In this document: positions 7,120 through 31,200 of the stretch, one piece after another | Layout: every line of letters starts with the position of its first letter | How positions within the stretch are numbered: position 1 is the stretch's first letter | Assembly: GCA_040954595.2 (NCBI GenBank) | Contig: CM082578.2 | Span: 15,484,998 to 15,548,997, forward strand | DNA: 64,000 bases | Source of the DNA: Balanoglossus misakiensis | Lineage: Eukaryota; Animalia; Hemichordata | Reading direction: 5' to 3' | Translations under genes and position numbers: made by a program | The notes under the pieces: model-generated | What the model was told of the DNA's origin: nothing | What the model saw: the letters and a program-made list of their open reading frames with translations, nothing else | Databases searched by the model: none

Positions 7120-10100
7120 TTATTGCTCAAGAAGACCCAACTTGCATTCAAATTTCTGTGATTTCTTTGCGATTTCTGCCTGTCGTTTCATTTCGATCTC
7201 TTCCTGTGTCCAAGGCCTGTATACCTTGGACCATTCTTCATCTGGAAACAGCCTTTCATAGTGATCCCCTTTCCCGACTCCAATCTGGAAACAAGAGAAG
7301 AAAGAAAGTACTGTCATGATGCATTTTTCTTTGAAGCAAATTCTGACAAACTATAATTTCATGCCATATAGGATTCTATCCTAGTCTTAACGAAACCAGG
7401 CATTCCTAGTACATGTACACGTATATGTCAAAGTGTTTTGTTGCTATGGGCAGCCATCTTGTTAGCCTCGTCTTGAGTGTGCATATTTGCTTGTCGGTAT
7501 ACATAGGATTTGGAATGATTCAAAAATTAGAAGGACATTGCAGTCTGTCACCCATACTGTACCTGTCTATGAAATAGATTTTTTAGTTTGTTGCTGAACC
7601 GATCTGGGTTTGTATCTCCAACAAATATCTTCTTGTCCGCTCTGACCACAAGGGAACCACCAACATGAACTTCTTCCAGGAGTACGCCACGCTTGTAAGA
7701 GTAAAATACACCCTGCGGAAAGGCTGTACATTTGCAGTCTCTTGGATTCATGTCACCAGGCTTGAAGAATTCTGTTGCACTCATTGTTGGAAATCTTCAA
7801 AAAAGAAAGAAGCTTGGGTTAATGCTAGGCTTAAAGAAGATCAATAAATCTAAAGAACCAGATTGAAATTACTGTGAGATATGTTATACTCCCCATACAG
7901 GTGATTATGTTTGCAGTGTTGACTGTGATAATTTAGTCTGATATTTACCGTAGCACTCCTCTCATTCAATTGACAGACAACTATTGAACATACCTGTGAT
8001 GGCTATCTTCAATTGTAATGATTAACATGTGTTCTTGGCTCATGAAGTAGTCATTTTTCAAAACCCATGCTTGGGGCAATTCATAGTAGTACTCTACAAC
8101 CCCCTTCATAGTTTCACTGCCATCTGATAAGAAAAGAAACATTTTGATGTTACTCAAATATGTAACAAATGGATAACCTTCAAAAAGGTGTACACGTTCT
8201 TGTCTGCTGAAAGAAAATGTCATTAAGTTGTGGGTAGGTGTTACCTCACACATCAGTTAAAACTTAAAACCAGTTCTGTACATGCTCCCAACAACTTTAC
8301 CCATCTACAAGAGTTTTCTTTGCCGAACACATGAAAATGGGCAAAAAACTGTAGAAGTATACTGTAGAGGTAGTGTACCTTCTTTTGGCCCCTCTTCTGG
8401 TTTCAGAACAGCAACATCACACATGAAGCCTTGACCAAGTTGGTAGAGTGCAGATGAGACACTGATATGATCTAGAAGAAGGACGTGGTACATACACTCT
8501 GTGTTGGTATGTGCTTATAGCAATCAAAGATTTCCCTTGTCAGTTTTAAATACACATTAGAAATCAGGAAATATATTGAATAAAAACTCACCAAGATATC
8601 GAAATAAACAATCCCTAAAAATTCATTCATTTGCTTTTCTTTTCAAAAAAATTGAGAACAAACTGGTGAAATCAGGCAAAAAAGTTCATGCCCCCTCTCT
8701 GACAGTGCAACTGTTTCCTTTGTTTTTACTTGACCACATGGATCAAAGAACAGGTGGGGAGTATGTTGTCAATAGCTGATTTGAATAGAGTTTTTCTGAG
8801 ACTTCCGTGATCAACAAGTGGGAATATCGACTCACGAGTCATGAACTTTGCAAGTTCTTCTGCATCTATTGTTGGGAACACCCTCTTCCACAAATCCTGG
8901 CCATCATACCGCAAACCCAGCATGTAAAACAGTGAACGGATGTTGTAGCGGAAACCATGGATGAAACCCGAGGCTGCTCTGCGATCCCTCGCCTGCATGG
9001 CTGTACCGATGAAGTAAACGTCTGGTACAGTAGTCTCCCAGTGTTCATCAAGGATGGGAAATTTGCCTTTACAGTGTGTTTCTGGAGAAGGAAGAAAGCT
9101 TAAGGGTTAGTAATTCCACTGGTTCTTGAAATCCAGCAGACTAAATTTGTTATTATATTATACCAGTATATTGATGGTGTAAATCACGCTATTTGATTGG
9201 TCGAGACACGACACGTGACCGTGATATATTAGCCATATACCACAGTCATATATCATAGTTAAAGAAAATGCCTTTTTAAAATGTTTTATGCAAAGTTTCA
9301 ATATACTGGCATAATATAATAGCAATAAAACACCCCCAGCCATGGTATACCACTCGATTTTGACCAGTTCAACTCCATATACGCACTCGCTATCGCTCGT
9401 GCGTATATGTCGTGAACTGGTCAAAATCTCGTGATATACCATGGCTGGGGGTGTTTTATTGCTTAATTGAAGCATGCGAACAAGTATATACCGACATACT
9501 ATAAGGCGAACGTTTATACAAAACGGAAATGGGTCCAAGGTAAATTAAATGACCAAGGGAATCTTTGTTTACCTGGTTTGCAACTGTCGTCAAACAAGTC
9601 CAAATTAATAAATTTCCACCCAGTGGCCAAGATAACTTTATCATAACCTTTACTGGTGAAGGTAGCTGTGCCTGGTGGGTCCCAATGGGGGAGTTCCATC
9701 TCAAACACCTGAGTTATTTTCCCATCGTCTTCCTTGATGAATTTCTTGGTGTCACATTGCCGCAATGCATGTAGGGACTTGAGGTGGTACATGTCGATGA
9801 TGGAGTTGTTCACGGCGCGAAGGTTGCCCACAAAATGAGTGTCCCACGCGAAAATCACCGGCGTTCGGGTGCACATGTGAATGATGGCAGCGCTGCTGGC
9901 CAGGTGATCTGCGGTCTACAAAAACGTATACGTTTTATGTGACAATGATATACCAAAGGAATTTGTCTTCAGTTTGAAGGAAACCAGTTTTTCCTAAAGT
10001 TCTTTACTTTGGTTTAGAACTCAAGTAAACCAGAAGAACTCGTGCAAACTGCTGAGCACCGTAAAATGGATCAAGATCATAGGATGACCACTTACTTCGA

Positions 10101-11066
10101 ATGCACTGTTGCCTCCGCCGAGGATGAGCACTTTCTTGTTTTCATACTCTTTCAAATCCAGGGAGTGGTTTTGGTATGTGTCAACATGCTCGAGGCCCTC
10201 AATGTCAGGGTTATCTTCAAGGACGGGGCCGGTGCCAACCAGGAGGACTTTGCAAGTAATAGTGTTGCCTTTGTCGTCAGTCAGTGAAAAACGGGAACGA
10301 AATTTGCCATCCAGAACTGCCTCCCTATGAACCTGCTTGATGGTGGTGTTGTAGCGAATTTTCAGTTTGAACTTTTGAACGTAGTCACTTAGGTATCTGC
10401 AAGTAGAGAATGGCAGTCGAGACAGTTATGGTTTGGAGTATAAAGGATGGGATGATGCTGAAAGTGTGAAGGATTGTCAAAACCGACGTATAAAAGCGCA
10501 ACGCCTCAGAGTTGTCCCAAGCAGAGAATGTAAATTAATTTTCGTTCGACCCCCAGAGGTCGTGACTCACTTGACCAGCACGTCGGCTGATGGAAATAGT
10601 TCATCGGTGTATTTGGTGAAGAGCATGTCATCGTCATCGCTCAGCAGAGAGTTCCAGTCGTGGCGAAGGTTGAACTCTTTCTCGGGGAAATAGTTGAACT
10701 TCTTGTTGATGGAGATCAGCGTCCGATGACGCGGCTGACACTTGAATAGAGACCCGGGACAGTCGGCCTTTTCTAGTACAATGTAATCCTTGTCAGCTTT
10801 CTCCATGTAATAGGCCATCTGGACCCCAGCAGGGCCAGCGCCAATGATGACGTATTCGAAATCTGAAAGGAAAACGATATGCGCACTGGTATATATGATC
10901 GATGATGATGGCAGTGGTGGTGGTGAGGTTTATAAGATAGTAGTAATTTTCTCATACATCAGTTAGCAGTCAAGGACTGAACGTGAATTACCAGAAAAAA
11001 AGATAGCAACTTGTAGCTAAAGTAACCGTAGTTATAAACAACGCAACACATACCGTTTTTGTCCAT
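7120..11066 (-). CDS. FOXRED2: FOXRED2-like FAD/NAD(P)H-dependent oxidoreductase, paralog A (about 604 aa, 9 coding exons, no signal peptide)
   Basis: Exons 11066-11054, 10862-10571, 10396-10096, 9915-9573, 9081-8836, 8471-8379, 8123-7994, 7794-7563, 7284-7120; all GT-AG with consistent phases. Motifs: YVIIGAGPAG (FAD), PRHRTLISINK, EFNLRHDWNSLL, ILGGGNSAFE (NAD(P)H), WDTHFVGNLRAVNN, ASGFIHGFRY, all characteristic of the FOXRED2 family. Confidence 0.9.
9159..9466. mobile_element. Hairpin-ended non-autonomous repeat, copy 2, in intron 4 of FOXRED2-like A (possibly Crypton-type)
   Basis: 9260-9466 is near-identical to 1-207. Long terminal stem-loop, no terminal inverted repeats or clear TSD. 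Left boundary approximate; superfamily is a guess. Confidence 0.8.
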
Positions 11067-11340
11067 CTTCAACAAATTGGGGCTTCTGGAAGAAATCACA
11101 CAATTTAAAGACTTTTTATTAGATCGTGTCGTTCTTAAAGGGCATATGTTATGCACAGCTGACCTGCTTCCCTGTTAGTTCCCAATCATACAGTTCCGTA
11201 CACAGATACATAAAGAAGTTTCTCTTGTAGGTTTTGCTTTTAGTATGCAATGTTTTTCCCCCGGCGGAACCAACAAAGTGCCACTGTGAAAGTGTTGAAT
11301 CCTATGTCACCTTTGCCAGCAAGAACATTTATTCTATTAC

Positions 11341-11438
11341 CTCTCTCTATCTTTCTCAGCCTCTCCCCACTCTCTCAATATCTGCCCCTCTCTCTCCCAC
11401 CCTCTCTATCCCCCCTTTCTCTATCCACACACACACAC
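11341..11438. repeat. CT-rich / (CA)n low-complexity tract
   Basis: ctctctctatctttctc...cacacacacacac. Confidence 0.7.
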
Positions 11439-14280
11439 GCGAGATTTGGAATCGTGATGATCTAGCCAGATCTTACCTGAAATCGCGTGAAAGTAACCGC
11501 TAACCCAGCGCCAGGTCAACTCACTCGACAGTAAGAATACCAGTGGTGCTCGACGGGTTCATAGTCCAGTTTAAAATAGCTGCTGTAAATTTATCTTCGG
11601 AAATGTCTGTTTTGCATGTGAACACGACTGACGTCGCCAACCATTTTCTACAATGCGACCAATATGTGAAGTCGAAGAAGTCAGGTGATACGAATGCATC
11701 TGTCAGTCAAAAATCATACCTACCACACGTGGGGGTAATATTGGCAGACACGTCTGTGATATACTGCCACTGAATAATTGCAATGGTTCGTTTCAACAAA
11801 AGAGCTGATCCAGACAAATAACCTTGTCATGCAATGCACTCTGGCGCGACCTTTTGTGGCCTTTAAAATGCAAATGTCACCTTTTTACAAAAACGTCCTT
11901 GGCTTAATATGATCACACGTGGTGTGACCGAAAATTGGCATGTGGACCTAAACCCTCGTCTCCACAACTGATTAAACTTCAAAATACAGATATTAAGGAA
12001 CGTGGATAGAGTAATTTTAACTAGTTCCAGTAACGCAGAAAATCCGGCGGTCAATACTCCAACTGACATACTGCCATTTCTCATGCCCTCTGGTCAGAAA
12101 CAATGTTAAATATAAAGTTGAAAGGTGGTGGTCGATGAAAAGCAGCGCCTATACTTATTCAAATTTGACATTTGCGACGTACATCTTCCGACAGTCTCGG
12201 GTTAAAAATAGACCAAGGATGTAGGACAACGGGACAAGGTTAATGTGAGGTGTGTGTGTGGAGGGGGGGTGGTGGTACACACGGGTGTAGTACGGTACGA
12301 ACTTTATCCATTTTCGGAGCATGGCAGTCGGATGTTTGAAAACACTATCACCAAGCACAACATCACAACATGGTTTACTGTTAATACGACCAATTGGTTG
12401 ATCAGCTCAATTCCTAAATGCTGTCGCAGAAAAAAATCACACGCCACAGACTTATATTGTCCAGTATGTCAGATTTCAGCACTATCATTCAGGCCATTCT
12501 GAGTATGCAAATATAACCTTTCCGTTCCGTTCCATTTGTGTTTTTGTCGATGGTGAAAGTAATGTTACCCACGGTCTTTGACTTGTCTTGAACTTTGTAT
12601 GAAGTGAAGATTTTTCCCAGCACAGCCACTGCAGTCCAATATTTGAACTATAAGACTTGCATCACTTGAAAAGAACAATTTATTGCAAAATAAAGCTCAC
12701 ACAGGGACTGTGAATAAACCACAACAGCTTCGCCTTGTACTCAAACGTACGTACGAAGGCTAACTCAAGTAAACAGGCCAACAGCTCTCGCCCTGTCAGA
12801 AAACAGTCACTAAAACTCGACTCCGAGAAGACTCACAAACACACGGACTGCAAAACAGTCCCTAAAGAACATGCACCGGTGAAAAAGAACATGCACCGGT
12901 GAAAATGCATCACACACATGCATGACACAGGCGCAGCCACGTACAACATATATTTTAAGCTTATTGGCGTAGAGGGCGTACACTTTTATCATGGAGGCAC
13001 GCCCATGATCGCATTGAATTATCAGAATTTCTCAACCAGTTTATGTCAATGGAGAACAAACGATTGACAATATCCAGGGGTTATGTCTGAGTTAAAATCC
13101 CATAAGAAAATGTGACTTGGGTGAATAAAACGGAGATTTCATATTGCTGGTGGGTGTGTATGCGATCTTTTGTTTCTGATCATTGACCGTTCCCCCAACG
13201 AAGTTACTGAGGTTTACGTCAAGATAAAAACAAGATTATATAGAGAAGACAGGAAAGAAAATCTTTGGGTTTTGTCCATTTTTATTTATAAAAGTTCAAC
13301 GCAAGAAGTCAAAAAATAAAATCAGACAAAAAGACACATAACTCAGATAATCAGAAAAGAGACATTTATAACGAAATTAGTGTTTGAACATCTTTATAAC
13401 TCGAAGTAGGATGCTTCACAGTAAACCATGAGTAAACCAATGTAAGACAGTATATACCATATGTCATATGAAAGACTGCTCTACGTACAAAGAATCCTGT
13501 AAAATTTCTACACGCAAAAAATGTTTGTCTCTTCGATAATGTAATTTTGAAAACATTGTGATTTCTTCTTGCTTATAGTACACCCGGTTTGTCTGGGGGA
13601 AAAGCCCTTCTTGGAAGCAAATTTCAAAACAAAACTTGGAAGATTTTTGAAATATATAATGAAAACATGAAGAGATATACATGTATAATGAATCATCCCG
13701 TGTAAAACTTTATACATTTTTCATAAAATATGTTTTATCAATACACATAAAGAACATTTAAATCAACGATAAGAGAAAACTGGTTGCATTGTCCTATTTC
13801 AGAAAACCATTAATCGCTGTTGGTAAATGGATGAAATGTCCACATCTCTCAAAGTTTTAACTTCAGAGACAATCGACCCCGCAAAAGGCAATATTTCGGC
13901 GACAAACAAAATACTTCCAAATATGAATGATCAATAGTCGGCCCATGGTTTTGAGTACCAGTAATTGAAAGTCGGATATTGAAATACAATCTTTCATATA
14001 GAAAATCGAACCATGGTGTTTTTGCTGGAGACTGAGAGGTGTTTCAATTCTCACATCAACGTTTAACTCGAAAAGACTCATTTCACACGCCTTTGTGGGT
14101 TTTTTCCCGTTTGACCAGTGTCGATGGTTCGGCCACGCGCACGGAGATACATTTGAAGTGTGACCAAATTCCTCATTGTCAGTGAGTTCATTTATCTACA
14201 CACCGTTCATCTCCTGGTGTACTTTATTATTTACAAAATATAGAGCATGAATATTTTGAGTGCAGTTATTAAAAATCGTG

Positions 14281-17200
14281 TTACGGCTCGATTTCCAAGT
14301 AGATCTCCACCGATGGAATACTGCTTCTGTATTTGCACCACGTTGGCTCCACCTGTCTCACGGGTGAACTGGGTTCCCCGGGGATGCTTTTCCTGTAAGC
14401 CTTCGACCACGTTGGGCCGTCTGGCGTCACGGTGTGTTCTTCCTGGAGAAGGAAATTGAAGAAGACGTGTACACACACAAAGAAAGTGGAAGTTGGAGAA
14501 AAAGGGGTGAGCAAAAAGTCGGAGAACGAAGAATAGAAGAACAAGGCGAAGATGTGATTTGAAGGATAGCACCACAATGTAAAGTTAAGCAGACTAGAAG
14601 ATGTATAGAGAGATAGACAAAAAATTAAAAGCAATGATTAGTATAGCAGCACATAGACAGCAGGCGCCCCTTATAGCATGTATAGCAATTAATGCATGGA
14701 TTTAAAGGGACAGAGTCACCCACTTTTGACATTACTTTGGTTGCTTCTCTTGATGACGTATGTCCAAAAAGAGGTTGTCACGACCACTACGAAAAATTAA
14801 ATGCTTGCCCAAACAATGTTACAGAGTTTTTAGTGTGAGTAGTTGAATTGCTGCAACCGATCGTCAATGTCAAAGTTGGGTAACTGTTTCCCCTCGTAGA
14901 TGTTATTAAGCACGCTAAGCAGACATTTGCACCCCAGACGAATGTAGGCCTATATCAATTACAATGTAGCACAGCCTAGCCGTGGGGCTCAGTCGTAAAA
15001 AGTTAAAATGACGTCATGGCACTGTAAAAAGGGGTTCTGCGCGGACCTCTCCTTCAAAATTAACGGATGCCATTTGTGTAAAAGATTTATCATTCACTGT
15101 TCGTTAAACGGATACTGCTGGCTTTATAAATCACCACACCACCACAGAAATCCACAAATCGAAGGAAATATTCGATAGAGTAGAAATGACAATATATGTA
15201 GAACTTTGATTCTTACCTTGTATTCTTTGTGGGCAATTTCCATAGCTTTGAACAGCGCTGTAATGTTACCCGCGCCAAAACCAGTAGCTCCTACTCTAGT
15301 GATAATTTCCATAAAAGCAGTCTTCTTTTGAAAAATGGGTGCTGAAAACGCTTGCATCAAAAACCTGAGAGAAAAATAGGATTAATCACTCAAATTATAA
15401 ACGCAGACCTCCAATAGAATCATAACTCACAAACCACACAAAATTATCTGGCATCACTGAGAGAAAATATTCATGATTGGGCAGTTACATACCGTTCGCT
15501 TTTTTGTACGGAGTCGGTGTACGAGAATTCGCCTTCGGCGTCCAGGAGTATACCAAACTTCTTCATATCTTCGAGACACTTTCCTGCCCTTTTGATTTCT
15601 TCGTCTTTACCAACCTTCAGTGTAACAAGGAAAATAGCCGTATTTTAGAGTTGTTTTTTGCATAGTCTATGCTTTCAGTCATTGCCATAGAAACCATACA
15701 TACATCATGTGGGCACAGGCAATCCACAGCTTGCTTTAGCTGCAAACAAGGAAGATGTACACAAATATAACCTAACGTACCGATGTGTAATACTCCACAG
15801 GTATAACTGGAAACACGGAACCGGCTAGCTTCATAGACCTCACGGTATTGACAATATCGTCTGTATACAGTGCGATGTGTTGAATGCCTGGTCCACCATG
15901 GTGTTCAAGAAAAGTGGCTATTTGGTTGCGACTACCAGTACCTTAAATAAAAACATATTCACCGTTAAGCATTATATTTTTTTCGTCAATTTTCCGTACA
16001 CAGAGATTCTTTTACAATTAGCCCCTTCAAACGTCGAAAAGAGGTATGCGACGAACATACTTTTCACGGACATAAAATATTTCCACCAAAAAGCAGTAAG
16101 TACATGGTTCATTAGTACCTTCGGCCCAGATTGCTTCTGCCATGACGAAAGTCACTGCATTTTTCTTGGAACCCTCGGGTTTTTCCAGTCGAACTCCAGA
16201 TTCGGCGCATTTCCAGTACTGGGCGGCCATCAGACGCAGCTCAACTGTGCCAAAATTGATTGGCATGCCGGTTTCGTCATCTTCATTCAAATTGAGTCTG
16301 AATCTCTCACAGCCAAATGCTTCCTGGTAGAATTGGATCATCTGGAAAGATAAGATCAAAAATATTTGTAAAAAAAAGTTTAGTCAACTTATTGAAATGG
16401 TTCAAATGAACATGCGTAGAGGTCGGATACGCATTAATCGGGGGATATCCCAAACTGTCGCAATCACCACAGAACCCGTGGTTCGGATACGTCAACCGTT
16501 TTGCTATCATCCTATGGTATGGGTCATGTCTGTTTAGAACTTGCAAAACCAGGTCTGTGCCTACGAAATATTAACCGAGCATAGATCACGCGTTGTTTGG
16601 TCGTAACCGATTAGAGATTACACCAACAAAACATTAAATCCGGTCATAGACAATGGGATAGAGAGATCAACTCACGTGCCACCATTTCACCGAGTGGTAA
16701 ATGATGATGGCGAGATATGTCAGACCGCGTCCCGGACTGGCACGGCACTTCATGTGCGGCACGTAGACGGTGAACCCCGATGGTCACCGTATCAAGGTGC
16801 TCGGTACTCAAGTCACGGTTACGATGATTTTTGATGATAAAGCTTGTGTTGTGTTGAAGAATTGCACGTCCTATAAATAGGATTATGGGAACGCCCTGAC
16901 ATTGATTGGTCTCAAACGCCCTTGATTTGAAATTTGGTCTGGCGATTTAGGCCTCATTTTGAGAGAGTCGCAAAATGAATGCCTTTAATGGGGAAATATG
17001 TATTTTTTTCACTATGTACTAGGTTGTTCTGCACACTGGTTTCCCGATACCATACACAGAAAAGAGCAACCCTCCCTTTGGCAAAAAAAAATCGATATTC
17101 TCTGCGTTTTGACACAATATTGCTTTTTCGACAATGAGTACATCAGTTCGTTTCGGGGGCATTCGCACAAACTGGGGGGGGGATTTTTGGAGTGATCGTG

Positions 17201-18345
17201 TCTTGGCACCCATCTCCTCCTCCTCCGTCATCATTTCAAGGAATCCTCCTGCTAGGGTGAGTCCCGTGTCCACACCCTTTAACTTTGTAACTGACGATGG
17301 AATGATAAGCCCTATCTGGTTCCAACTGGCACCGCGCTCTGAGAGTGGCACGTGCATGATGGACATCGATCTTCACGGGACACGAGAGTGGACAGTGCCA
17401 GGTACGCATACGCAAGTCACGGTTATGAGCACAATCGCGTGTGTCATGGAAATAAAGATGAACTTCCTCTTTTTCTGTGGCATATTACGATATAGGATAA
17501 CATACCTTGGGTGATGTTCCTGACTCCACCACGTAAGTAAGGTGATCGATGTGTGTGGTTTTGGGGCGGGGCTCGCTGGGAAATTTGGCCAGCAACTCAT
17601 TATTCGGTTGGCTGAACCCAGGCAGGAAGACCCCGTTATATTCTGTGCTGTTGATCAGCGTATGGACAACATTACCTGCAAGAAAGTGAGATAAAAATAT
17701 AACTCACATTTTCTGTAACGTGTTGTGTAAATCTCAGCAAATGTCAACCCTAACAGTCGAGGGTCGACGGTGCAAAATAAACAACACATCTCTCACTCTG
17801 TATCTCTCTCCCTCTTTATCTCTCTCACCCTCTCTCTCCCCCTCCCCACTCCCTCTCTCTCTCTCTCTCTCGGTATTGCATCAACAGTTTTGTGAGGGGA
17901 AATCATATGTTGACGATCCAAGATTTTCGTGTACATGTTCTTTCTGGGTAGACAATTTGTGTTTTGATGAAAAAAACACAACAGGAAAAATCAACTAACC
18001 AATTGGTGATCCTATGACAGCCATGTTAACGCTGCCATTGCCATCCTTCAACGCCGCGGGTTCTTCGATGACAGTCGCCCCGGCCGAGACGGCCCTCCTG
18101 AACACCCCTTCGACATTTCTGACTTCTAAAGCGCAGTCGAAGATGGTGTCTCCGGATATGATGCAATCCTCCGGTCGCTGAGAGAACACGAAGACACTCT
18201 CCCCTGCTCTCACGGCGTACTGGGGAACATCAGGGTCGTTGAAGTTGACGGCAAACAGTTGAAAGCCAAAATGCTTGCTGAATTCTTTGGCCCTGGAGAA
18301 TGCGTCAGCGCAGGCGACTTCAAAATGATGCAGAGTAGCGGCCAT
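14281..18345 (-). CDS. HPDL: 4-hydroxyphenylpyruvate dioxygenase-like (HPDL-type) Fe(II) dioxygenase, about 443 aa, 7 coding exons
   Basis: Exons 18345-18000, 17675-17506, 16341-16119, 15941-15781, 15614-15493, 15364-15217, 14442-14281; phases consistent. Two VOC domains. Intact metal triad: IDHLT, GPGIQHIALYTDDI, FMEIITRVGATGFGAGNITALF. The YNGVFLPGF, GILLD and GATGFG.GNI.AL segments fit HPDL better than HPD. Confidence 0.88.
14706..14894. mobile_element. Degenerate MITE, possibly Kolobok-type
   Basis: ttaa|agggacagagtcaccca ... tgggtaactgtttcccct: imperfect terminal inverted repeat with TTAA on the left only. Confidence 0.3.
17788..17870. repeat. (CT)n-rich microsatellite in HPDL-like intron 1
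   Basis: tctctc...ctctctctctctctct. Confidence 0.8.
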
Positions 18346-19413
18346 TGTTGAAGTTTTTAGAATCGCCTGTTATAGACAAAATCAGAGAATTAATGATACT
18401 AACAGAATGTGAAATCGTGAAAAACTTAAAATCGTTTTTTTTTTCTCTGTTGTCTCTTCAACTCAAACAATGAACACCGTCATACCCCAGCCCATTTTAC
18501 AGGGGAGTTCCGCTTTTAATAATAACAGTAGGGCCTACCAATTTTTTTCCTGTTGCGTTCGTTCGTCTTATTAGTGCGTAGGTTTCTACAGAATCTTATT
18601 CGCATACAGGTAATATGGACATCAGGTAGCCAACAAGAATGTCTTCTCTGCGTGTCGGAGAATGATGTAATGTCACCCCATATGACGTATGGTATCGGTC
18701 GGTAATCATGCCATCCCCGCCTTATCTCAAATTTTTATATTTTGTGGAGTTTTTTTCAAAACAGCTTCGTCTTTCCAACTGATGCAACACGTGCCTGAAT
18801 ACATAACCCGACCCTCGTACACGGCATGTCTCCATTGTTCAGTACAGCTGTTATGTAATAGTTTACAGACGGACCATCCCAATATACCAACTGTTTATTG
18901 GATGACACTTTCGCGTCAGGTGTGGAGTGACTGTTGCACCATAATACATATTGTTTCCCTCTAAAAAATAGAGGTCCACGTCGCTCTCTCTCCCTGTCAT
19001 TACTGGTGGCACTGTTTCTTTTCCTGTCGCGAATATAACCCGTTTTACAGTAGCATTCTACATTTGTACTCATGCACTTCACGTCAGCGGTCGTTACACA
19101 CGCGCGAGAACTGTAATGAGGGTATCTAAGACCCCTACACTTTCCCCAATCTCGGTGCGTTACCAAGGAACTATGCCCGGTGACTCTCGCTCTAAAACTG
19201 CCTTGCAAATTTTTGAAATTACTGCCAAATGCGCCGGTTGATATGACAGGTACTCTTATGAATCATCACGATGACCGAGTCAGATAACCTGACTTGTATT
19301 AAAAACGGAGCTAAAGTCATGATCCCATTGACTGTATCGTGGCAACACAGGCTAATAATAGCAGTTCTCTTCCACTGAGCATTCCTCCACACAGGGAGGG
19401 ACTGTGGCCTAAC

Positions 19414-19441
19414 CATAGACCCTGGAGTTCCAGGGTCTATG
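19414..19441. repeat. Palindrome CATAGACCCTGGA-gt-TCCAGGGTCTATG (P-element-like termini)
   Basis: Perfect 13-bp arms with a 2-nt spacer; no flanking TSD visible. Confidence 0.6.
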
Positions 19442-20756
19442 ATCTTATGATCATACTCCTGAACATACACATTTGTGACCATGTTCCGTAACACAGATAT
19501 GGTTCAGAACGGGGTGCACGGATGTCAATCACTCGATTGGCCTGAAAACAAATGACTTCGTCGGATTATGACCCAATTTGAGCTCTTCAAGTCACGTGGT
19601 TATCTTATCAGAAATCTTCACCGTGATAACGCATACGGTTTCCGCCCGTTCTCACACATGAGCGACTCTTTACCTGGTCGTTCAGTAACTACACATTGAG
19701 GGGGGCTAAATCCCGCCGTGTTATATTTGTTACAAATTAGAGAGGCTCACGGCAAAACCTGATTTGTGTTGTGTCACTGTTGTGCGTACTTCTGGTAGGC
19801 AGTTACGGAAAACCTCCAGACGGTCGGCGGGACGGGACGGGACGCAAAATACAATGCTTATGTAATGTACACGTGAGCAGCAACACCAACGCTTGGCATA
19901 CAAAGCAAAATTCTCTTTTTAAAAATAACAGAGAATCATGTCCTATTTTGCAGTATTTTGTCACAATTATTTTAATTTATACAAAAGCGCTGATTCTTTG
20001 TTCAGACCTAAACCGTCACAACCCACGAGCAAGCTGCAAGGGAACCTCTAGCAAAGCCTCCGAAAAAGTCGTTCCTCATGCAATGAAACTCAAAGAAACG
20101 TACGAAATACTTACGGAATTCAACTGCTGTGCTGATGTGCCTGTTGTTCCGAGCGAGGAGGGGAATGAGAGATATTCCGCAGCAACAAGATGATGTATAT
20201 GTAGATATGCAAATGAAACATTTGAAGTTTAAAAGAAGATCACGTGCTATCAAGGTGATATGATTACACAGCAGGCGAAGATTGGTGCTTACTGCAAAGT
20301 AAATAGACGATCTGCAGATAAGAAAATTTGGAACACAATCCTCTCTGTTGTCTGTTGTCCTCGCATGTTTTAAATAATCATTTATGTTCAAAAATACAAT
20401 TTTCGTGAAGTTCGTGACATGTAATAATATCGACACAATGAGACTTGAAAATGCTGGCACTCGTCCAAAGTACGCTAGTGATCATTTTGCGACCGACTCC
20501 TTGGGGAAGTCCGTTCGGTCTAATATGATTATAGAGGTAGGAGAGCTAGCTAGGGAGCTAGAAGGGAACGGGAATTAAAAACTTTTTTTTCGGTGGGTGA
20601 AGGGTTAGGGAATTTTACATTTATCGTTGTATCGCAGTATGTGGCCACCATAAAAGACTAAAAGACTGGTTCTTAGGCGCATTTCCTCAGTGTGTGCTGA
20701 CTGCACAGTATGTACATGTATCTTCTTCATGTATAGACACGGTCACTCGTTCCTAT

Positions 20757-20779
20757 CATGGACGTAAAAAAAGTCCGTG
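20757..20779. mobile_element. Minimal P-like element/footprint catggac...gtccgtg
   Basis: Flanked by ttcctat / ttcttat (7-bp TSD with 1 mismatch). Confidence 0.45.
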
Positions 20780-21124
20780 TTCTTATATATACAATGTACC
20801 TCTGATTGTTCCATGTATTATCCAAACTCAGGTACAGCCCTCAAATAAATGAAATAAATGTTGTACCATTTCTTCATATGCCAAGAAATTGACAGGCCAG
20901 TTCCATTTGTTTTATTCACAGGCGATTTTGAAGCTATTGAACATTTCAGAGAGTGCTGGCATTTTTACGATTCCGTCCGGCTCACACGACAGAGTGTGTA
21001 CTCCATGCTTCTAGTTAGTACAGACCCTACACCCTTGGAGGTACCACAGTCCACCAAAGTGTCGTATTATGATAAACTTAATACTTACGGAGCATTCGCT
21101 GAAAACTCAGACGAGTGATTACAT

Positions 21125-21146
21125 CATAGACAGTCTACTGTCTATG
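21125..21146. mobile_element. Minimal P-like element/footprint catagacagt-ct-actgtctatg
   Basis: Perfect 10-bp inverted arms flanked by a perfect 7-bp direct repeat attacat. Confidence 0.65.
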
Positions 21147-22121
21147 ATTACATGTACTAGTAACTTGGGATTAGGGACAGGCGAGAACACACGTTTTCAT
21201 AATATGTGAGATTGCATTGGTCGATTTCTCATCGACTTCATGTATTTCTATCTTTCAAATTGAACATGGCGTCTGCATTTGTTTAGTGGGTCCCGTCTGA
21301 CCGTGCCTTCTTCACTGATTCGATACGTGTAGACCCTGGAAGGTTTCTATTGTTCGCTCTGTATCTGTTTTCCACGGCCGCATGCGCTCCGCGAGATGGT
21401 TGTGCAGGAAAGGTTACATTTGCATGTCAATAAGATGGTTTGGTTCAATAGAAGATTTATCAATAGCGAATAAACATCAGTAATAATCGGTTGCTAACAC
21501 TAACTACAGCGTGCCTAATAAACAACCCCCCACCCACAGTGAGTTACTGTGTGGGGGTGTGTCCACCGTCACGGTGCCGTCTACGAAAGGGCTTATTTGC
21601 ATGCAATAAATCTCGGTGGCCGAAATGTCTCATTAGCATGTGTAAATCTAGAGAAAAAATTCCACTTGCCTGGAGCATGGAGGAAAGTCGCTAAAAAGCA
21701 AATCATCTCAAAAGTCAAACGCGCAGTCCAGAAGCATGGGCCGCGAATGGAGTGACTGATGGGTTTGAACACGAAACTCAAGAAACAAGGGAATGTGGTT
21801 TACAACACGAAGAAGAAAGAGTGTTTAAAAAAAAGAACTGAATTCTGGGAAACGATAGAAACATACTTTTTGACCAATCCGTGTGCCCCGTCCGTTCTAC
21901 ATTCTCCATGGGTGCATTTCGTACGTTCATTTAGTGGTTGAGACCTCGTACTGTGTCCTTTTTTTTGAACTACCCCATGAATATCCAAATTCGTGGTCTG
22001 GATCTAAGCTAATATGTCTGTAGGTGTTCGTGGCCATGGTGAAACCATAGACAATGGAGAGGGGGGGGGGGCACAATGTGCCAGGGGCCTCGGCCTATTT
22101 TCAGATGCCTCTCAATAAAAC

Positions 22122-22137
22122 CATGGACATTTCTATG
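22122..22137. mobile_element. Minimal P-like element/footprint catggacatttctatg
   Basis: Flanked by a perfect 7-bp direct repeat ataaaac. Confidence 0.55.
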
Positions 22138-23333
22138 ATAAAACCCAGTCGCTATAAATGTCTCATTAGCATAAGAAAAATATGGAAATGCGACATTGCA
22201 GTACTTGTCTGGAAGTCTACGAAAGGTCTTTGACTGTCTAAAGCATAATTTCGTGAATAGAGTCGTTCATATCTGCCTACATAGGTATATTCAAAGGCGT
22301 TGGAGACCTTGTACCCTGCCCTTTTTGAATTACCACAGAATTATACAAATTCGCGTTATGAGTTCTGATAGACCCGTACCGCAAAATCGTGACATTCGAG
22401 CGTAAAACTTTCACGTGGCTATTCTACCTGTTCAATTTTGTACGGGTTCAAGTTCTCAGACGATAACAATTCACAAGTTTCCTTTGTCGGAGAATCGATC
22501 AGCAAATCGGCATACTTTCTGAAAATTACAACTTTATAGCTTTTACAGCTTTGACACCTGACACAATTGTATGTCCTATAAACCACGGTGGGGTGATCGT
22601 GTTCCAATTCATGAGTAAGAGTGTTATACACAGTTATCCTGAAATCCGGGGCGAGGAAAAACTCCGAGACTTTCTGCAGGGATTTCACAGAGACACCGTC
22701 GCAATGAACCACTGTCAAATTTCAAATAATGTTACATGAAATAAAGAGAGATATACTCTTCAGACGGCATTAAAACGACTTTCCTTTATTCACCGACTTG
22801 TATCAACTCATGGTATACGACCATCGCTTTCTGTTTGATAGATGTTCTTGATGGTAGCGGAAATCTATACAGCAAATATGCTATCTAGTATGTAATGTCG
22901 TGCAAAACAAGATTCAACCTTCATTTGTGACAATGAGATAAAAGCAAACTCCGGAAAGGTTTAAGACAAGAAGTTATCATTGATTCCAGTAGCAGGTCAA
23001 ATCATTCTTGTTCGAGTATCATGGCCCAACCTTTCTCCAATGAAAGGAGTTGCTTGGCATTTAAAAACCCGGTCAACCGTAGAGGCAAGGGGTTCAGTCT
23101 CCCATTTCACTTTTTTTTAAATGCCCATACACGATTGGTCCGCATATGCAGATACACGCCTTTCTACAAGTCCCTCCCAGTCAGCTGATCACAGCCACAG
23201 TCCAACCCACTTGTTAGGATACTTCAAGCGACAAACTGGTGCTTTCGACACTTGTCCTGAGTTCATCGTGGTTCTCAGATTTCTCCGTCGTCATCATTTG
23301 CGAGTATCAACTTTCCACTAGGCAAATAACACA

Positions 23334-26300
23334 ATGGCAGAGAAAACTGGTAAGTGTAGGCAACTGAGACATAGTCATTAGTTTTCTCACATGGACTGAA
23401 GAAAACTTCTATATAGTGGGTATCTATTTGGCCCGCTCGATTTCTTACACTTATGTGTTGACCCGTTCCGTGTCTTGTGATTTCTCCCCACTATTTTACC
23501 GGAGAACCTGTACTTTTGGGCCAAGGCATAATACAGTGCTATCATTTCATCCCCAGACTACGAGTACATCGTCGTAGGCGCTGGGCCTGCTGGTGTACAG
23601 ATGTCCTACTTCATGGAGAAGATGAAGATGGACTATCTGGTGTTAGAAAAAACCGACGTGCCTGGATCATTCTATCTCAAATACCCCCGCCACCGCACCC
23701 TGATCTCCATCAACAAGAAATACAACGTTTTCCCAGAACCCGAGTTCAATCTCCGCCATGACTGGAACTCTCTCGTCAACGATGAAGAAGAGGAACCGCT
23801 TCTTTTCACCAATTACACAGAGGAACTCTTCCCAAACGCCGACGTCTTAGTCAAGTGAGTTACACATTGACTCCGTTTTTTCTTTGCTTTTGAAAAGTGC
23901 CCCTGAAGCAGTATATATAAAATGACCCCAACAGTCTGATGGTGAGAACTTGGCGTCTTGCATCATAAATAACGCACACTCCTGTTACTTAGCTGCAGCG
24001 ATAAGGCTAGGAGACCGTTTTGGGGATTCCTGTTGAGGTTTTGGCTGTCCGCCCATCTCTCTACACCAAATCGATTTCACGCGATCTGCAGCATGCAATA
24101 CTGTATCGCGTCTTTCTGTTCTTTTTGCATTCCAGATACCTTGCAGATTTCTGCGAAAAATACAAGACAAACATTCGTTACAACACACAAGTAAAAATTA
24201 TCCACCGAGATGAAATTCCCGGTGACGATAAGTTCAAGTCCAAGTTTACCATTACAACAGAGGACGGACAGACCTTCACTTGCCGGGTCCTGCTGATGGC
24301 CACTGGACCAGCTTTACCACACGACCCGAAGATAGAAGGAGTAGAAATAGTAGATACATACCAAGACCACAGTTTGGATCTCGAGGAATACAAGAATAAG
24401 AGAGTTTGCATTCTTGGTGGAGGAAACAGTGCATTCGAGGTAAATAAGAGCGCCACCAGTGCCCGGAAATTGCTTGGACCTTTGTTTTCGCACATTTCAC
24501 ACCTACGGTCACAATGACATGGCGTATCAATGTTATTTTACCAGAAATACAGTGTTTTTCAATCGAGGACGATTTTATCATTTTTTTTTCAAAATAGGTT
24601 GCTGACTATATCTCCGGTGCGGCTGGTCTCATCCACATGTTCAATAGGCACGCTGTGAAATTTGCCTGGGACACTCACTTCGTGGGTCACCTTAGAGCCG
24701 TCAACAACAATGTGCTGGACATGTACCACTTGAAATCACTGCACGCTCTGCGCAAGTGCGACGCCACCCGCATATGGAAGGCCGACGATGGCACATTCAG
24801 CATTGAGTATGACATGCACCTTCCTAACTGGGACCCACCAGGCACCGGGCGGTTTGTCAGCAATGGTTATGACAAGATCATCAACTGCACCGGTTGGAAA
24901 TTCCTGAATCCTGCGTTATTCGATGAAACCTGTCAACCCGGTAAGCCTGTCTATACTATGACGTAACTTTTCAGTCACATGGCGCCCAGTGGGACAAGAA
25001 ATTTTCACATTGTGTGACCAAAAGTTTCATGGATCGAATAGAGCAAATGCTACGTGTATATTTTGCATGTTTGTAAACATGTCTGCTTACTTTCAAAATT
25101 ACATCTTGTAAAAATGTAGGTACCCACACTGATGGCAAATACCCCACACTTGACGAACACTGGCAAACAACGGTCCCAGATATGTACTTCATCGGGACAG
25201 CCATGCAATCACGTGACCGAAGAACCGCATCCGGTTTCATCCATGGCTTTCGGTACAACATCCGTTCTCTGTGTCACATGTTACGCGAAACCTACGATGG
25301 AATCAATCTGCCTCGAGCCAAAGTGTTCAGTCCTATTGACCAGGAAGAAGTCTGTCGGTGGATAGTCAGTAAGTTGCGTCTGTTATGTGCGCATGCTCAC
25401 ACTTCTTCCAAACCTCTTCTTCCTTGAGGGAAAATGTAGTTTTTCCACCCACCATCCATAACCTTAAATCGGTTTTCTTCCCAGAACACGTCAGCGTCGT
25501 TTCTGCCCTCTACCAACTCGGTCAAGGATTCCTCTGTGATGTCGTTCTGGTTCACGCCGAGGACGGCGAGAAAGGCAGTGTTGAGTACATCCGGGAACTT
25601 CCCCAGGCCTGGATTAGGAAGCAGTCGTGGTTCTTGAATGCACCGCTGGCATTTCTCATCAGCATAGAGGACACCATTGCCAAGTAAGCGCAATAAAATA
25701 TGTTAAAGCATATTATATAGACAACTTATGAAAATGGCAGGTGGAAATAGGAAAGATCAGCGTTATGTTTACCACGCACACGGTGACGTAATCACAAGCA
25801 ACCAAGATGACACCAAAGTCTATTAAAGAAGCGATAGTTGAACTTTCATGAGCCACTTTTGATCTGCAGTACTACATGTACAATATACCACAATGTCTCT
25901 TCTGCTGTCACTCAGATATCCCGAGCTGAAAGCTACCGAGTTCTTCACTCCCGGAGATGCTAACGTCAGCAACTGCAAGTGTTCACCGTTCCCCCAGGCT
26001 GTCTTCAGGGTCTTTAAGGAAGGCAAACTGGTAGACGATCTCTTCATCGGCGGCTCGCTGGTCGTCCGTGCCGATACCCGGAACTTTGACGGAGACACGA
26101 ACCCAGAGAGATATGTCAACAAAGTGAAAAATCTTTTCCATCGTCATGTAAGTATTTCTCCGTCGAGTTGTTGTTCCTAACTACTGTACTTTGTATATTT
26201 GCTATCGGAATGACATTATGACAATTCATCGAAATGTTTCCGAGCATCAAATGTAGATATCGCCTGCATGAAATATTCCGATCCAAAAGCATCACCACCC

Positions 26301-26547
26301 CAACCCGTTCATTCAGTCCGGGACCTCATATATTTTTTCTTCCTCTCCTCGAACACAGACCGGTCTTGGGAAGGGAGGATTCTACGAACAACTCTTCACG
26401 CCGGATATATGGCCCAAAGTTTACAGACCGTGGAGTCAGGAAGAAATTGAAGAGCAGAGAAAGGCCGAGATGGCAAAGGCGAACAAGAAATACGAGTGTA
26501 GTCTGAGTGTAATCCGGTACAACCAAGTCGACATTGCCGATGTGTAA
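23334..26547 (+). CDS. FOXRED2: FOXRED2-like FAD/NAD(P)H-dependent oxidoreductase, paralog B (about 609 aa, 8 coding exons, no signal peptide)
   Basis: Exons 23334-23349, 23557-23854, 24136-24439, 24598-24940, 25120-25368, 25485-25683, 25916-26147, 26359-26547; phases consistent. Reads MAEKTDYEYIVVGAGPAG, YPRHRTLISINKK, EFNLRHDWNSL, ILGGGNSAFE, WDTHFVGHLRAVNN, ASGFIHGFRY. Collinear with paralog A. Confidence 0.9.
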
Positions 26548-28242: not shown

Positions 28243-31200
28243 CTACTCTCTTTTCACTCGTTGCATTCTGGCGTCAGAGATGCTATCCGCTTTCCTCTTT
28301 AATCTGGATACCTCTAATTTCGGGTTCTCGGCTGCCCTCTTCAGTCTCTTGTATCGCGCCAAGATTTTCTGATCGTCGTCCACCACCCTTTTCTGTCTCT
28401 TCACGCGATTCAGTTTGTCGACACCTTTGCCGCTACTGCGCTTGTGCAGACCGGATTTCTGGAAAGCTGCGTCCTCGGCCTTTCTTCTCATTCGTTTCAC
28501 GCGTTGAAGGGCTTTCTGATTTTCATCCGCGCCTTTCTTGACTCTCTTGGTTCGTCTGTGCGCTTCCGGCCCGTCATCTACCGACCCTCGGCGGAAGCGT
28601 TTCACTCTCTCCAAGGCCTTTGGACTCCCTTTCTCTTCTCCTCCAACATCCAAGCCTTTCACGCGCGTCAAGGCTTTCTCCAGTTTGTGCGTGATTGCCT
28701 TCGTCTCCTTGCGGGTTTGCTTTATTCTGGCATGGATGTCGTTGGCCTCGTCCTTTGGCTTTGCTTCGGCGTTGTCATCGGATTTTCGCCGGAATCGTTT
28801 GACCCTGGTCAGTTCCGGCAGGTCTTTTTCTTCGCCGTCCGTGATTATTCGCTTGATGCGATTTAAATCCTGAGAAAATAATGAAGCATACTGTTAATGG
28901 GCTCATGAAATGATAGTAGGGAATTACATAGAAATTTCATCTGATCGACAGTTGACATAACATATTGTGTTGCCCGGTGGTGGCGCTCCCAGGGAAGATG
29001 GGTACCCACGCAATACCTATACCTTGATATCGGTCCCTGTCTTAGATTTTGTAAATGAGGGGTTGTTTTTTGGTCTAAATTTCTCCCATAGTTCACAAAA
29101 AGGTGTCTCCCGGAAAGGGGCATATACGTAAATACGTAGAGTTAATTATCCTAGCTGTCGGTTTATTGGGAATTAAGGTCACGAAGTATATGACCTCACC
29201 CGGTGCATCGCCACTGTTATATGGAGACAAATTTCAATTTGAATTTGAACTGACATGTACAATAATTTAACGGCAATAAGCGCTGCTTACTGTCCGTGTG
29301 CATCATATGTCATGATTTGTTGAAACCATCTGCAGGAATAACTCAACATCTTATGAAAATAAATGGAGCCCTTGGAGATGTTGACGTGTGGAGGTTTCTT
29401 GATAAAAAATTAGGACGTTGCAAACATGAGATATTTGAAAATTTAGCCACAGTTGCCATGACAAATAGAGATTTGATTGAACGTAATATGATAATTTTAA
29501 ATTGACGCAGCTGCATCAAATTTGATATAAATGACTAGCAAATGAAAAATTTTAACCAGGAAAAAACTGTCAAATATTGACGAAAACAAAATTCAGGGTC
29601 ACAGTTAGCAGTACTATTGGATTTGATATGTCAGTCAAATGTTCCCAAATAGCGTTGAATCCACTTGCAAGTTTCCTGCTTGAGAAGGTGTCATGTGTAG
29701 GGGCCTATTGATTAATGATGGCCATCTATTCTTCTTGTAGGATTCGTCTCTCATCAGAGAAGAGGATAAGCACAAAGCGCTTGCAACAAGCCTTTGAATG
29801 AACGCATTAAAGATGGCTTTCATATTTTATGAGCTCATCATGAAATTATAATTCAAAACAGACTTTTTCGGTGAAAGTGAAATTTATCATGTAATACTCA
29901 GTAGGAAAGTGTAATGATTTTCAGTTTATATTAGTACGTTTTACATGCAGGCAAAACGCTAACAATCGACGTTCTCATTTATTGGAAAGAAATATGAGGT
30001 TTCTTTGATGGCTTCATCACGTTCAATTCCGGTCACGTGATGTGTATGTAAATCCGACTGTGTAGGAGACATCTCGGGCCCATACTCGAACCGTTCCAAT
30101 TGTTGACACAAGGACGTGTCAGTGTTGCGTCAACCATGGAGGTACCAGTGTACATCCATGCTAATGATTCTGTGTATTGCTCAAAGACCTTGTGACAACA
30201 CAGTTCAAACGCAATCATTTCCCAGACGACGTAAATCTCAATTACTGATGTCATGACATCCACTGTACACTAGGGAATTTCGCCGAAAGGTGTTTGCGTT
30301 TTGCAATTTGTGGGACGTAGCAAACGCCAGATAATCTAATTGGTTCAAAGAAAGGTTAAACCATGGACCTTGAATTGATGGTACGATTCGTTGGATTTCA
30401 TGCATATTTCATTGCTTCAACTTATCGCTTCGAGCTCCGCCCGTTTTCATGCCTGTTTTCACGGAGTTTTGTAGACAGACCATATGCATATCGAATCAAT
30501 AATCGCCGTTCACCACTGTCAGTAGTCACTGGCACACGAAAAATGTCTGAGTTTGTCATCATTTTGCAGTTGGTATGCGGATAAAAATACAAGGGTGACA
30601 TCTGTCAACAGGTTTCGTGCAATTATATAACACAATTATCACCCTTGTAATGTCTATCTGTATATTGATTCTGAGAAACTGCAAAATTATGTACGACTTA
30701 GCAATTTTCCGAGCCCCTGTGATTACGATATGAACAAGCTGCGTATATCAATCTGTCTGTCTGTCTGTCCCTCTCTCTCTCTGTGTCTATCCGTCTCTTT
30801 CTCTGTCTCTATTTCACCCTCTCTCTGTATATAATCACTTACTCTGTGTGAAAAATGAATTAAGGTACATGGTTTTCGAGGATATATTTTGTAGCGAAAG
30901 GTCATTCTTGTCTCTTGGGAATCAATTGATGTTATCCTAGTAGTTCTCTGACTTGTGTTACGATATAAGGTGTTAATGTACTGGGAATGTGAAACACTGC
31001 GGATTAAGCCGTAATCCCATAATCCCAGAAGACTCGTGTCGTGAGCCCGCATTGCCAGAAATTGCTGTTCTCTGCAAATTACAGCCGCAGGTCAGGCGAT
31101 GTGAAATGAAAATGAGAATGTCAGAACAGATGAAATAGAAGTAAATTTATTATCGAATGCTGGGGAAACCTATGATGATTGCCATAGCAACTGTATTTCG

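Follow-up and report, generated by a model that had tools for sequence, protein, structure and literature searches.

A candidate acorn-worm biosynthetic locus pairing two cytosolic-type FOXRED2-family flavoenzymes with a diverged HPDL paralogue

Closest described systems

The oro bundle of sponges (Kim, Lin, Agarwal and Schmidt, JACS 2026; PMC12833800) includes OroF, a flavoenzyme of the ERFAD/FOXRED2 family that is reported to brominate pyrrole carboxamides in vitro when supplied with FAD, NADPH and KBr. According to the same account OroF carries a signal peptide for the ER and differs from the flavin halogenases known so far, the determinants of its halogenating activity are not known, and no reaction is known for human FOXRED2 (PMC12833800). 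The brominase OroF is the only biochemically characterised member of the family that we found. The main text of the oro paper does not mention hemichordates, worms or HPPD, the main text of the hemichordate genome paper (PMC4729200) does not mention the flavoenzyme family considered here, and we found no description of the present cluster in the open-access literature. Enteropneusts are reported to contain high levels of bromophenols together with haloindoles (bromo- and chloroindoles) and bromoquinones, and whether the worms or their microbes make these compounds is stated as an open question (PMC6315191).

Mammalian HPDL is described as a 4-hydroxymandelate-forming dioxygenase that supplies CoQ head-group synthesis. 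Bmp5 and AetF are single-component class B flavin halogenases with a two-Rossmann architecture, and the bmp route begins at chorismate rather than tyrosine. The Balanoglossus misakiensis locus analysed here is like the oro bundle in that both join an ERFAD/FOXRED2-family flavoenzyme to duplicated primary-metabolism genes in an animal neighbourhood of known or, here, candidate biosynthetic character; it is unlike it in consisting of three directly adjacent genes, with an HPDL duplicate as the partner.

Gene models and linkage in acorn worms

Gene models were built across the window, by which we mean the whole 64,000-nucleotide stretch of contig CM082578.2 that was analysed. Gene A (7120..11066, minus strand) is a scripted model of nine exons (11066-11054, 10862-10571, 10396-10096, 9915-9573, 9081-8836, 8471-8379, 8123-7994, 7794-7563 and 7284-7120) encoding a cytosolic-type FOXRED2/ERFAD-family flavoenzyme of 604 aa, and lies 3.2 kb downstream of the HPDL gene on the same strand. 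The latter, a clustered HPDL paralogue that we call HPDL2 (14281..18345, minus strand), is a scripted model of seven exons (18345-18000, 17675-17506, 16341-16119, 15941-15781, 15614-15493, 15364-15217 and 14442-14281) encoding 443 aa. Gene B (23334..26547, plus strand) encodes a second cytosolic-type FOXRED2/ERFAD-family flavoenzyme of 609 aa in eight exons (23334-23349, 23557-23854, 24136-24439, 24598-24940, 25120-25368, 25485-25683, 25916-26147 and 26359-26547). Every intron in the three models is GT-AG, no reading frame is broken by an internal stop, positions 7120 and 26547 fall in the stop codons of the two flavoenzyme genes, and the model sizes agree with RefSeq orthologues (HPDL 443 aa, A 604 aa). 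The models thus bear out the initial annotation, which was made from the letters alone and had described three consecutive intact, intron-containing genes with HPDL and B diverging around about 5 kb. A splice acceptor 24 nt upstream of the HPDL2 ATG implies a non-coding exon further upstream, and an in-frame stop lies four codons 5′ of the ATG of gene B. The genes flanking the trio were identified by Pfam as an adhesion GPCR, PUS7L and CFAP54.

The divergent start codons of HPDL2 and B are separated by about 5.0 kb (18346..23333), a region that may possibly serve the two genes as a shared control region. Its repeats are short and weak, we found no shared upstream motif of note, and six ORFs checked within it gave no convincing Pfam match; all 11 ORFs checked in intergenic or intronic sequence stayed below the Pfam cut-offs. 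Within the window we recognised no hydroxy-acid oxidase or decarboxylase that could bridge 4-hydroxymandelate to 4-hydroxybenzoate.

The nearest sequence relatives of the trio are from enteropneust hemichordates, which agrees with the earlier guess, made without knowledge of the source, of a bromophenol-bearing worm. Identity to the Ptychodera flava orthologues is 83% for A (P0013), 82% for HPDL2 (P0076) and 87% for B (P0001), and these carry consecutive accessions in P. flava: XP_070559152 (B), XP_070559153/54 (HPDL) and XP_070559155 (A). In Glandiceps the same longest contig, 35,921,338 nt, is recorded for the orthologues of all three genes, and B and HPDL of Saccoglossus share one scaffold of 1,949,945 nt; no A-type gene was present among 61 Saccoglossus matches. 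Absence of this linkage from relatives had been named beforehand as a result that would count against a cluster. Judged by accession order and by matching contig or scaffold sizes of protein records, rather than by the DNA of the relatives, the linkage appears to be kept in P. flava and Glandiceps and, for B and HPDL, in Saccoglossus, although this order could simply be inherited among acorn worms. A metagenome scan with P0013 returned no relatives.

Family placement of the three proteins

Genes A and B encode proteins of 58.5% identity with homology to the FOXRED2/ERFAD-like family across the FAD/NAD(P)H core and with the family motifs. Pfam Pyr_redox_3 matches exons 2 and 3 of gene A, and the two Rossmann motifs that had been read from the letters were found in both genes, the first GxGxxG starting at residue 11-16 in all 16 full-length A/B sequences. 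All seven intron positions of B, with their phases, also occur in A, which carries one extra. These common introns mark A and B as true animal duplicates, and bacterial contamination or recent transfer was ruled out on this ground. In a quick, midpoint-rooted family tree the A and B sequences form a hemichordate-only group (support 99) with a distinct A clade (100), and the copies from the trio locus form their own orthologous subclades of A and B (98 and 93). An Intoshia protein and 2-kb contigs are sister to this group, and with midpoint rooting an older bacterial origin of the A/B clade is possible.

The same tree separates A and B from the ER proteins. Signal-peptide-type FOXRED2 sequences form a clade of their own (94), and A/B lie across a branch with support 99; A/B have no signal peptide, their C-terminal ends are not KDEL-like, and the C-terminal region differs. 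Identity to a vertebrate-type FOXRED2 sequence is only 36% for A/B, and 38% over 437 columns for P0001 against the vertebrate-type sequence P0247, which we take to be from a vertebrate. From these sequence features A/B do not appear to be orthologues of canonical ER FOXRED2/ERFAD, and a cytosolic location is predicted; no canonical signal-peptide FOXRED2 was identified by name in hemichordates. What A/B and human FOXRED2/ERFAD have in common is a TM of about 0.8 to FOXRED2 clusters in the Atlas and the family core, S60, N62, K63, R76, D78, W79, N206, R243, K256, H366, G367 and R369 being kept in every A/B sequence that covers it. This core also occurs in the ER protein ERFAD and is therefore no marker of a halogenase. 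OroF, placed by its published description (PMC12833800), belongs to the same ERFAD-like family as A/B; it is a single protein whose ER signal peptide makes membership of the other main clade probable, whereas A/B are two paralogues without one, in a clade nearer to bacterial long forms.

Bacterial relatives of A/B are frequently found in biosynthetic surroundings. Of 25 long-form loci scanned, 11 have neighbours of the NRPS, PKS or AMP-ligase type, one relative adjoins benzoate-CoA ligase and salicylate synthase, and one representative is fused to an IDO-family domain. An FMN alpha-hydroxy-acid oxidase lies near the flavoenzyme at 18 of 79 bacterial loci, all outside the scanned long-form set, and no HPDL/HPPD homologue was found within up to 8 kb at any of the 79.

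HPDL2 has the His-His-Glu triad and the HPDL-type conserved positions of its family: of the positions that at least 80% of 108 other HPDL sequences conserve, 88 occur in at least one of the five clustered copies, including H160, H268 and E360, which from knowledge of the HPPD family we take to be the iron triad. It is like mammalian HPDL and bacterial HmaS in family, and unlike them in its long branch, its non-basic N-terminus, an additional last exon of about 50 residues, and seven conserved positions (34, 70, 165, 176, 206, 236 and 293) that are altered in all five clustered copies. Over residues 1-40 the five clustered copies carry a net charge of 0 to -3, against +4 to +7 in the three other hemichordate copies; among 107 other HPDLs the mean is +2.3, with -1 or lower in 12. 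These other hemichordate copies represent a second HPDL, present in all three named relatives (P. flava, Glandiceps and Saccoglossus) from which paralogy is drawn, on a different contig and with 35-38% identity to the clustered copy; HPDL2 of B. misakiensis is 37-38% identical to this second hemichordate HPDL. In a tree built without an HPPD/HmaS outgroup the non-clustered copies group with echinoderm HPDL (SH-aLRT 91), while the five clustered copies form a clade (support 100) on a branch of 1.3 that falls beside Trichoplax, probably as a long-branch effect. HPDL2 thus differs from a housekeeping (mitochondrial, CoQ) HPDL in lacking both the echinoderm grouping and a basic N-terminus, and as far as sequence can tell it is a long-branch, lineage-restricted paralogue and not the housekeeping copy. 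The objection raised at the outset, that this might be the sole housekeeping HPDL, is answered for hemichordates by the second gene of these three relatives.

Candidate chemistry and competing readings

The AlphaFold model of P0001, the P. flava orthologue of B, has a pLDDT of 94.7. Of the solved folds among the best 50 structural matches, Bdr/YpdA, a disulfide reductase, is nearest (Z 31.4, rmsd 3.0, 315 aligned) and is also the top PDB match by sequence; type II FMOs come next with Z of about 30, then N-hydroxylases with Z of about 28. None of these nearest folds is halogenating. The initial annotation had linked A/B to halogenation through Bmp5, and had proposed comparison with AetF. A/B share with these enzymes the two-Rossmann class B architecture, and the proposed end products overlap in bromophenols, but neither Bmp5 nor AetF is among the 53 PDB sequence matches or the best 50 structural matches; absence from these lists does not exclude kinship, and the link is weak. 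By analogy, OroF appears to be the better halogenation precedent for A/B.

We consider evenly balanced the case that the trio is an acorn-worm-type cluster providing the worm's own route from tyrosine/4-hydroxyphenylpyruvate to brominated phenols or hydroquinones. Reasoning from human HPDL, HPDL2, predicted to be cytosolic, would convert 4-hydroxyphenylpyruvate to 4-hydroxymandelate. A and B, which may be co-expressed with it, would use FAD, NADPH and O2. At least one of them would oxidise bromide and put bromine on the ring at a position ortho to the hydroxyl, in the way that OroF brominates pyrroles; its partner would introduce another bromine or take off the side chain by oxidation, in an order that we infer. 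The products would be bromophenols, bromo-hydroxybenzaldehydes or bromohydroquinones. The linkage, the spare HPDL and the fit to acorn worms favour the earlier proposal of a host-encoded trio leading from tyrosine to a phenolic metabolite, the argument from Bmp5/AetF is weak, and the chemistry stays conditional. The bromination reading also draws on the OroF precedent with the retained family core, on the hemichordate-only A/B group with its repeated pairs, on the organobromines reported from enteropneusts and on the biosynthetic surroundings of bacterial relatives. Weighing against it are the non-halogenating nearest folds, the probable place of OroF in the other clade, the occurrence of the core in ERFAD, the A/B pairs that lack HPDL2, the missing A-type match in Saccoglossus, the bacterial loci without HPDL/HPPD and the want of a recognised enzyme bridging 4-hydroxymandelate to 4-hydroxybenzoate.

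Further adjacent A/B accession pairs occur at seven P. flava loci and one Glandiceps locus, a pattern of an expanding specialised module, and just one HPDL2 cluster was found per species. With at least eight pairs lacking HPDL2, A/B should be able to work without it, and they may be brominases whose substrates are free phenol or other rings such as indoles and pyrroles, with HPDL2 as an inherited or loosely coupled neighbour. The pyrrole substrates of OroF (PMC12833800) and the bromo- and chloroindoles reported from enteropneusts (PMC6315191) point the same way. We nevertheless regard this reading as unlikely, given that HPDL2 is lineage-restricted and fast-changed and lies between A and B rather than on its parent's contig, and that the A and B copies of this locus form orthologous subclades of their own.

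Type II FMOs and N-hydroxylases among the nearest folds would suit a pathway without halogenation, in which A/B oxidise or decarboxylate the 4-hydroxymandelate from HPDL2 to 4-hydroxybenzoate, hydroquinone or a quinone, or else detoxify the worm's halophenols. The alpha-hydroxy-acid oxidases near bacterial flavoenzymes suggest hydroxy- or keto-acid chemistry, and the described role of mammalian HPDL in CoQ head-group synthesis is in keeping with it. A canonical HPDL is still present for CoQ, however, the one characterised family member found is reported to be a brominase, and a single housekeeping step hardly explains many A/B copies, which makes this pathway quite unlikely. Very doubtful is ordinary microsynteny of unrelated paralogues with A/B acting in the cytosol as Bdr-like reductases of disulfides or thiols, a reading which the Bdr/YpdA matches and the retention of C502 and C604 (17 of 17 covering A/B sequences; 13-14 of 17 bacterial long forms) favour but which is opposed by TIGR04018 (YpdA) scores of 44.8 and 47.6 bits against a cut-off of 339.9, by lineage-restricted duplication of both the A/B and HPDL2 families and by the biosynthetic clusters of the bacterial relatives.

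Returning to the tyrosine-to-bromophenol reading, we offer a broader version of it tentatively, as plausible though short of probable: acorn worms may themselves make brominated phenols, quinones and indoles through previously unrecognised pairs of cytosolic FOXRED2-family halogenases. One such pair would have taken up a re-purposed HPDL and become a compact cluster leading from tyrosine to bromophenol, pairs lacking HPDL would have expanded for other rings, and through the same clade in other worms marine organobromines would have a source general to animals. With three named enzymes that can be expressed and few substrates to try, the locus makes the source of acorn-worm organobromines directly testable. 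Should neither halogenate, A or B may still show which steps follow 4-hydroxymandelate. If the proposal is true, it would add a further animal flavin halogenase in a clade apart from OroF and an example of HPDL diverted from supplying CoQ into specialised metabolism, and the paired paralogues would help to find how the FOXRED2 fold halogenates, which bears on human FOXRED2.

The A-HPDL2-B gene cluster

The gene cluster is real. Models built from the window sequence place gene A (604 aa) at 11066–7120 on the minus strand, the HPDL-family gene HPDL2 (443 aa) at 18345–14281 on the minus strand and gene B (609 aa) at 23334–26547 on the plus strand, with GT-AG boundaries at every intron and no internal stops, bearing out the initial annotation of three intact genes at this place. 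Identity between the A and B flavoenzymes is 58.5%, and the positions and phases of all seven introns of B are common to A. Adhesion GPCR, PUS7L and CFAP54 genes surround the trio. Intron 4 of gene A holds two nested, small-MITE-like inverted repeats (51 nt at 94% and 28 nt at 93%; 9147–9463). Two nearby open frames had no Pfam match: a 216-aa minus-strand frame (28243–28893) in which RVKR-like dibasic sites recur many times and which may be an exon of a precursor that is prohormone-like or cleaved by a convertase, and a proline/threonine-rich 295-aa plus-strand frame (3979–4866) that is probably the last exon of an upstream gene.

A homology search with exon 4 of B gave 61 matches among 114 candidates. 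The best 14 of these were hemichordate, 13 from Ptychodera flava, Glandiceps talaboti and Saccoglossus kowalevskii and one clustering with P. flava members; below them came two further hemichordate proteins, the others being bacterial where a source was given. Full-length identities to the P. flava orthologues were 87% for B (P0001), 83% for A (P0013) and 82% for HPDL2 (P0076), pointing to an enteropneust close to Ptychodera as the most likely source of the window. The P. flava accessions run from XP_070559152 (B) through 153/154 (HPDL isoforms) to 155 (A), matching the gene order in the window, with another A at 160/161; RefSeq numbering usually tracks gene order. The three Glandiceps orthologues have a common longest contig (35,921,338 nt) and scattered accession numbers, so that linkage there means the same contig only. 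Saccoglossus B and HPDL orthologues also have a common longest contig (1,949,945 nt), and no A-type Saccoglossus protein was present among the 61 matches. Linkage, the absence of which in relatives had been named as telling against the cluster, is thus found in them and, read from accessions and contig assignment, may represent inherited microsynteny. Full-length proteins of A, B and HPDL2 type are also encoded on JGI contigs of ~2 kb, which would fit spliced transcripts of some relative.

Phylogeny of the flavoenzymes and HPDL2

A quick LG+G4 tree of 97 flavoenzyme rows (the two window models, 18 hemichordate-linked sequences, 27 top matches, 22 of signal-peptide type by eye and 28 of 79 bacterial loci) recovered A and B as sister clades containing hemichordate rows only, with support of 100 each and 99 jointly. 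The nearest rows, from ~2-kb contigs (P0015, P0019, P0030 and P0204) and from Intoshia linei (P0205), suggest that the cytosolic clade is present in other worm-like animals. Next out, and sister to the A/B-containing group, was a third hemichordate clade without signal peptide (P0027, P0037 and P0206; P. flava and Glandiceps), whose members are further candidates for specialised chemistry; all of these lie amid bacterial long forms. Signal-peptide FOXRED2 rows formed a clade of their own (support 94), and neither a signal peptide nor a KDEL-like end is present in the A or B sequences. Over its first ~385 residues the AlphaFold model of P0001 (pLDDT 94.7) resembles Bdr/YpdA (Z 31.4), type II FMOs (~30) and N-hydroxylases (~28); the bacterial halogenases AetF and Bmp5 do not appear among the matches listed. 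Cysteines 502 and 604 (P0001 numbering), kept in A/B and most bacterial long forms and not in short forms, are a possible disulfide or redox pair.

The HPDL search gave 156 matches (120 listed). Those listed include, for each of the three named hemichordates, a second HPDL on another contig, 35–38% identical to HPDL2. A quick, midpoint-rooted tree without outgroup, built from 53 rows (the window model, 51 listed matches and P0076 replacing its isoform P0062), joined these second copies to echinoderms (support 91) and united the five clustered copies in one clade with support of 100, its branch measuring 1.3. The clustered gene is therefore not the sole HPDL in these hemichordates (a sole housekeeping HPDL would have weighed against the initial annotation), and judging from sequence it appears to be a spare copy. 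Clustered copies retain H160, H268 and E360 and deviate at seven positions conserved in other HPDL rows. Their first 40 residues carry a charge of 0 to −3, versus +4 to +7 in the other hemichordate copies, suggesting that HPDL2 may have lost mitochondrial import; a charge of −1 or lower also occurs in 12 of 107 other HPDL rows. The last exon of HPDL2 (14281–14442, minus strand) adds ~50 residues containing a short motif twice; Glandiceps and isoform X1 of P. flava keep this exon, and the Saccoglossus model and the second P. flava isoform, X2 (390 aa), lack it.

Bacterial relatives

We found 540 relatives and retained 79 bacterial loci; the ORFs of at least 120 aa in these loci include no HPDL/HPPD homologue. 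A scan covering 82 of the 128 ORFs that neighbour the gene at 25 long-form loci revealed NRPS, PKS or AMP-ligase neighbours in 11 loci and no halogenase of a conventional family. In 18 of the 79 loci the FOXRED2-like flavoenzyme has both a P450 and an FMN alpha-hydroxy-acid oxidase nearby, a recurring three-gene set (L037, L039, L041, L042, L049, L050, L054, L055, L057, L059, L061, L068, L069, L071, L072 and L077–L079), and two flavoenzyme copies occur in three. Among 19 long proteins scanned, the family core is fused with AMP-ligase and carrier domains in two (P0224 and P0230), with an AMP-ligase in one and with an IDO-family domain in one (P0260), PrnB being a member of the IDO family. Such contexts support small-molecule tailoring, but no specific reaction. 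At L008 (7998–14254), from the marine cyanobacterium Adonisia turfae, the FOXRED2-like gene is followed by benzoate-CoA ligase and salicylate synthase, each above cut-off, and a 3-hydroxyacyl-CoA dehydrogenase; it offers a simple setting in which to examine aromatic halogenation in bacteria.

Organobromines and the proposed pathway

The sponge enzyme OroF is described as ERFAD-like (43% to human ERFAD), dissimilar to known flavin halogenases and capable, with FAD, NADPH and KBr, of mono- and dibromination of pyrrole-2-carboxylate and its amides, with no chlorination (PMC12833800). It shares the ERFAD/FOXRED2 family with A and B, but the parallel has limits: OroF has a signal peptide, whereas they have none, and core residues retained in A/B are also retained in ER-type rows. 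The acorn-worm trio is a variant of a kind already known, the animal gene cluster that includes an ERFAD-family enzyme. In the earlier proposal of a route from tyrosine to a hydroxylated or halogenated phenolic, the analogy with the bacterial halogenase Bmp5 gives way to OroF, which belongs to the family of A and B. Hemichordates had also been counted among bromophenol-bearing worms, and one account agrees, reporting bromophenols, haloindoles and bromoquinones at high levels in enteropneusts and stating that their maker, host or microbe, is unknown (PMC6315191). In Capitella, 'foxred2' is described as a marker of an ectodermal cell population (10.1101/2025.10.31.685816).

Human HPDL is reported to convert 4-hydroxyphenylpyruvate to 4-hydroxymandelate. 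The favoured mechanism, to which we give an even chance, is a host route in which HPDL2 would perform this same step and A, B or both would act as brominase, the end products being brominated phenolics. That A and B are brominases not coupled to HPDL2 is unlikely by comparison; beside the linked trio stand adjacent A/B accession pairs without HPDL2 at seven P. flava places (XP_070555400/401, 555544/545, 556191/193, 556201/202, 557171/172, 536707-8/709 and 579886-7/888) and at one place in Glandiceps (XP_077994880/882). Several of the copies in these pairs are short, at 396–544 aa, and perhaps incomplete or disrupted. Slightly less probable again is oxidation without halogenation, or detoxification. 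Chance microsynteny, with A and B acting as reductases, is the least probable reading. With the host route to brominated phenolics as the favoured reading, the acorn-worm cluster makes the old question of the organobromine source testable with three proteins.
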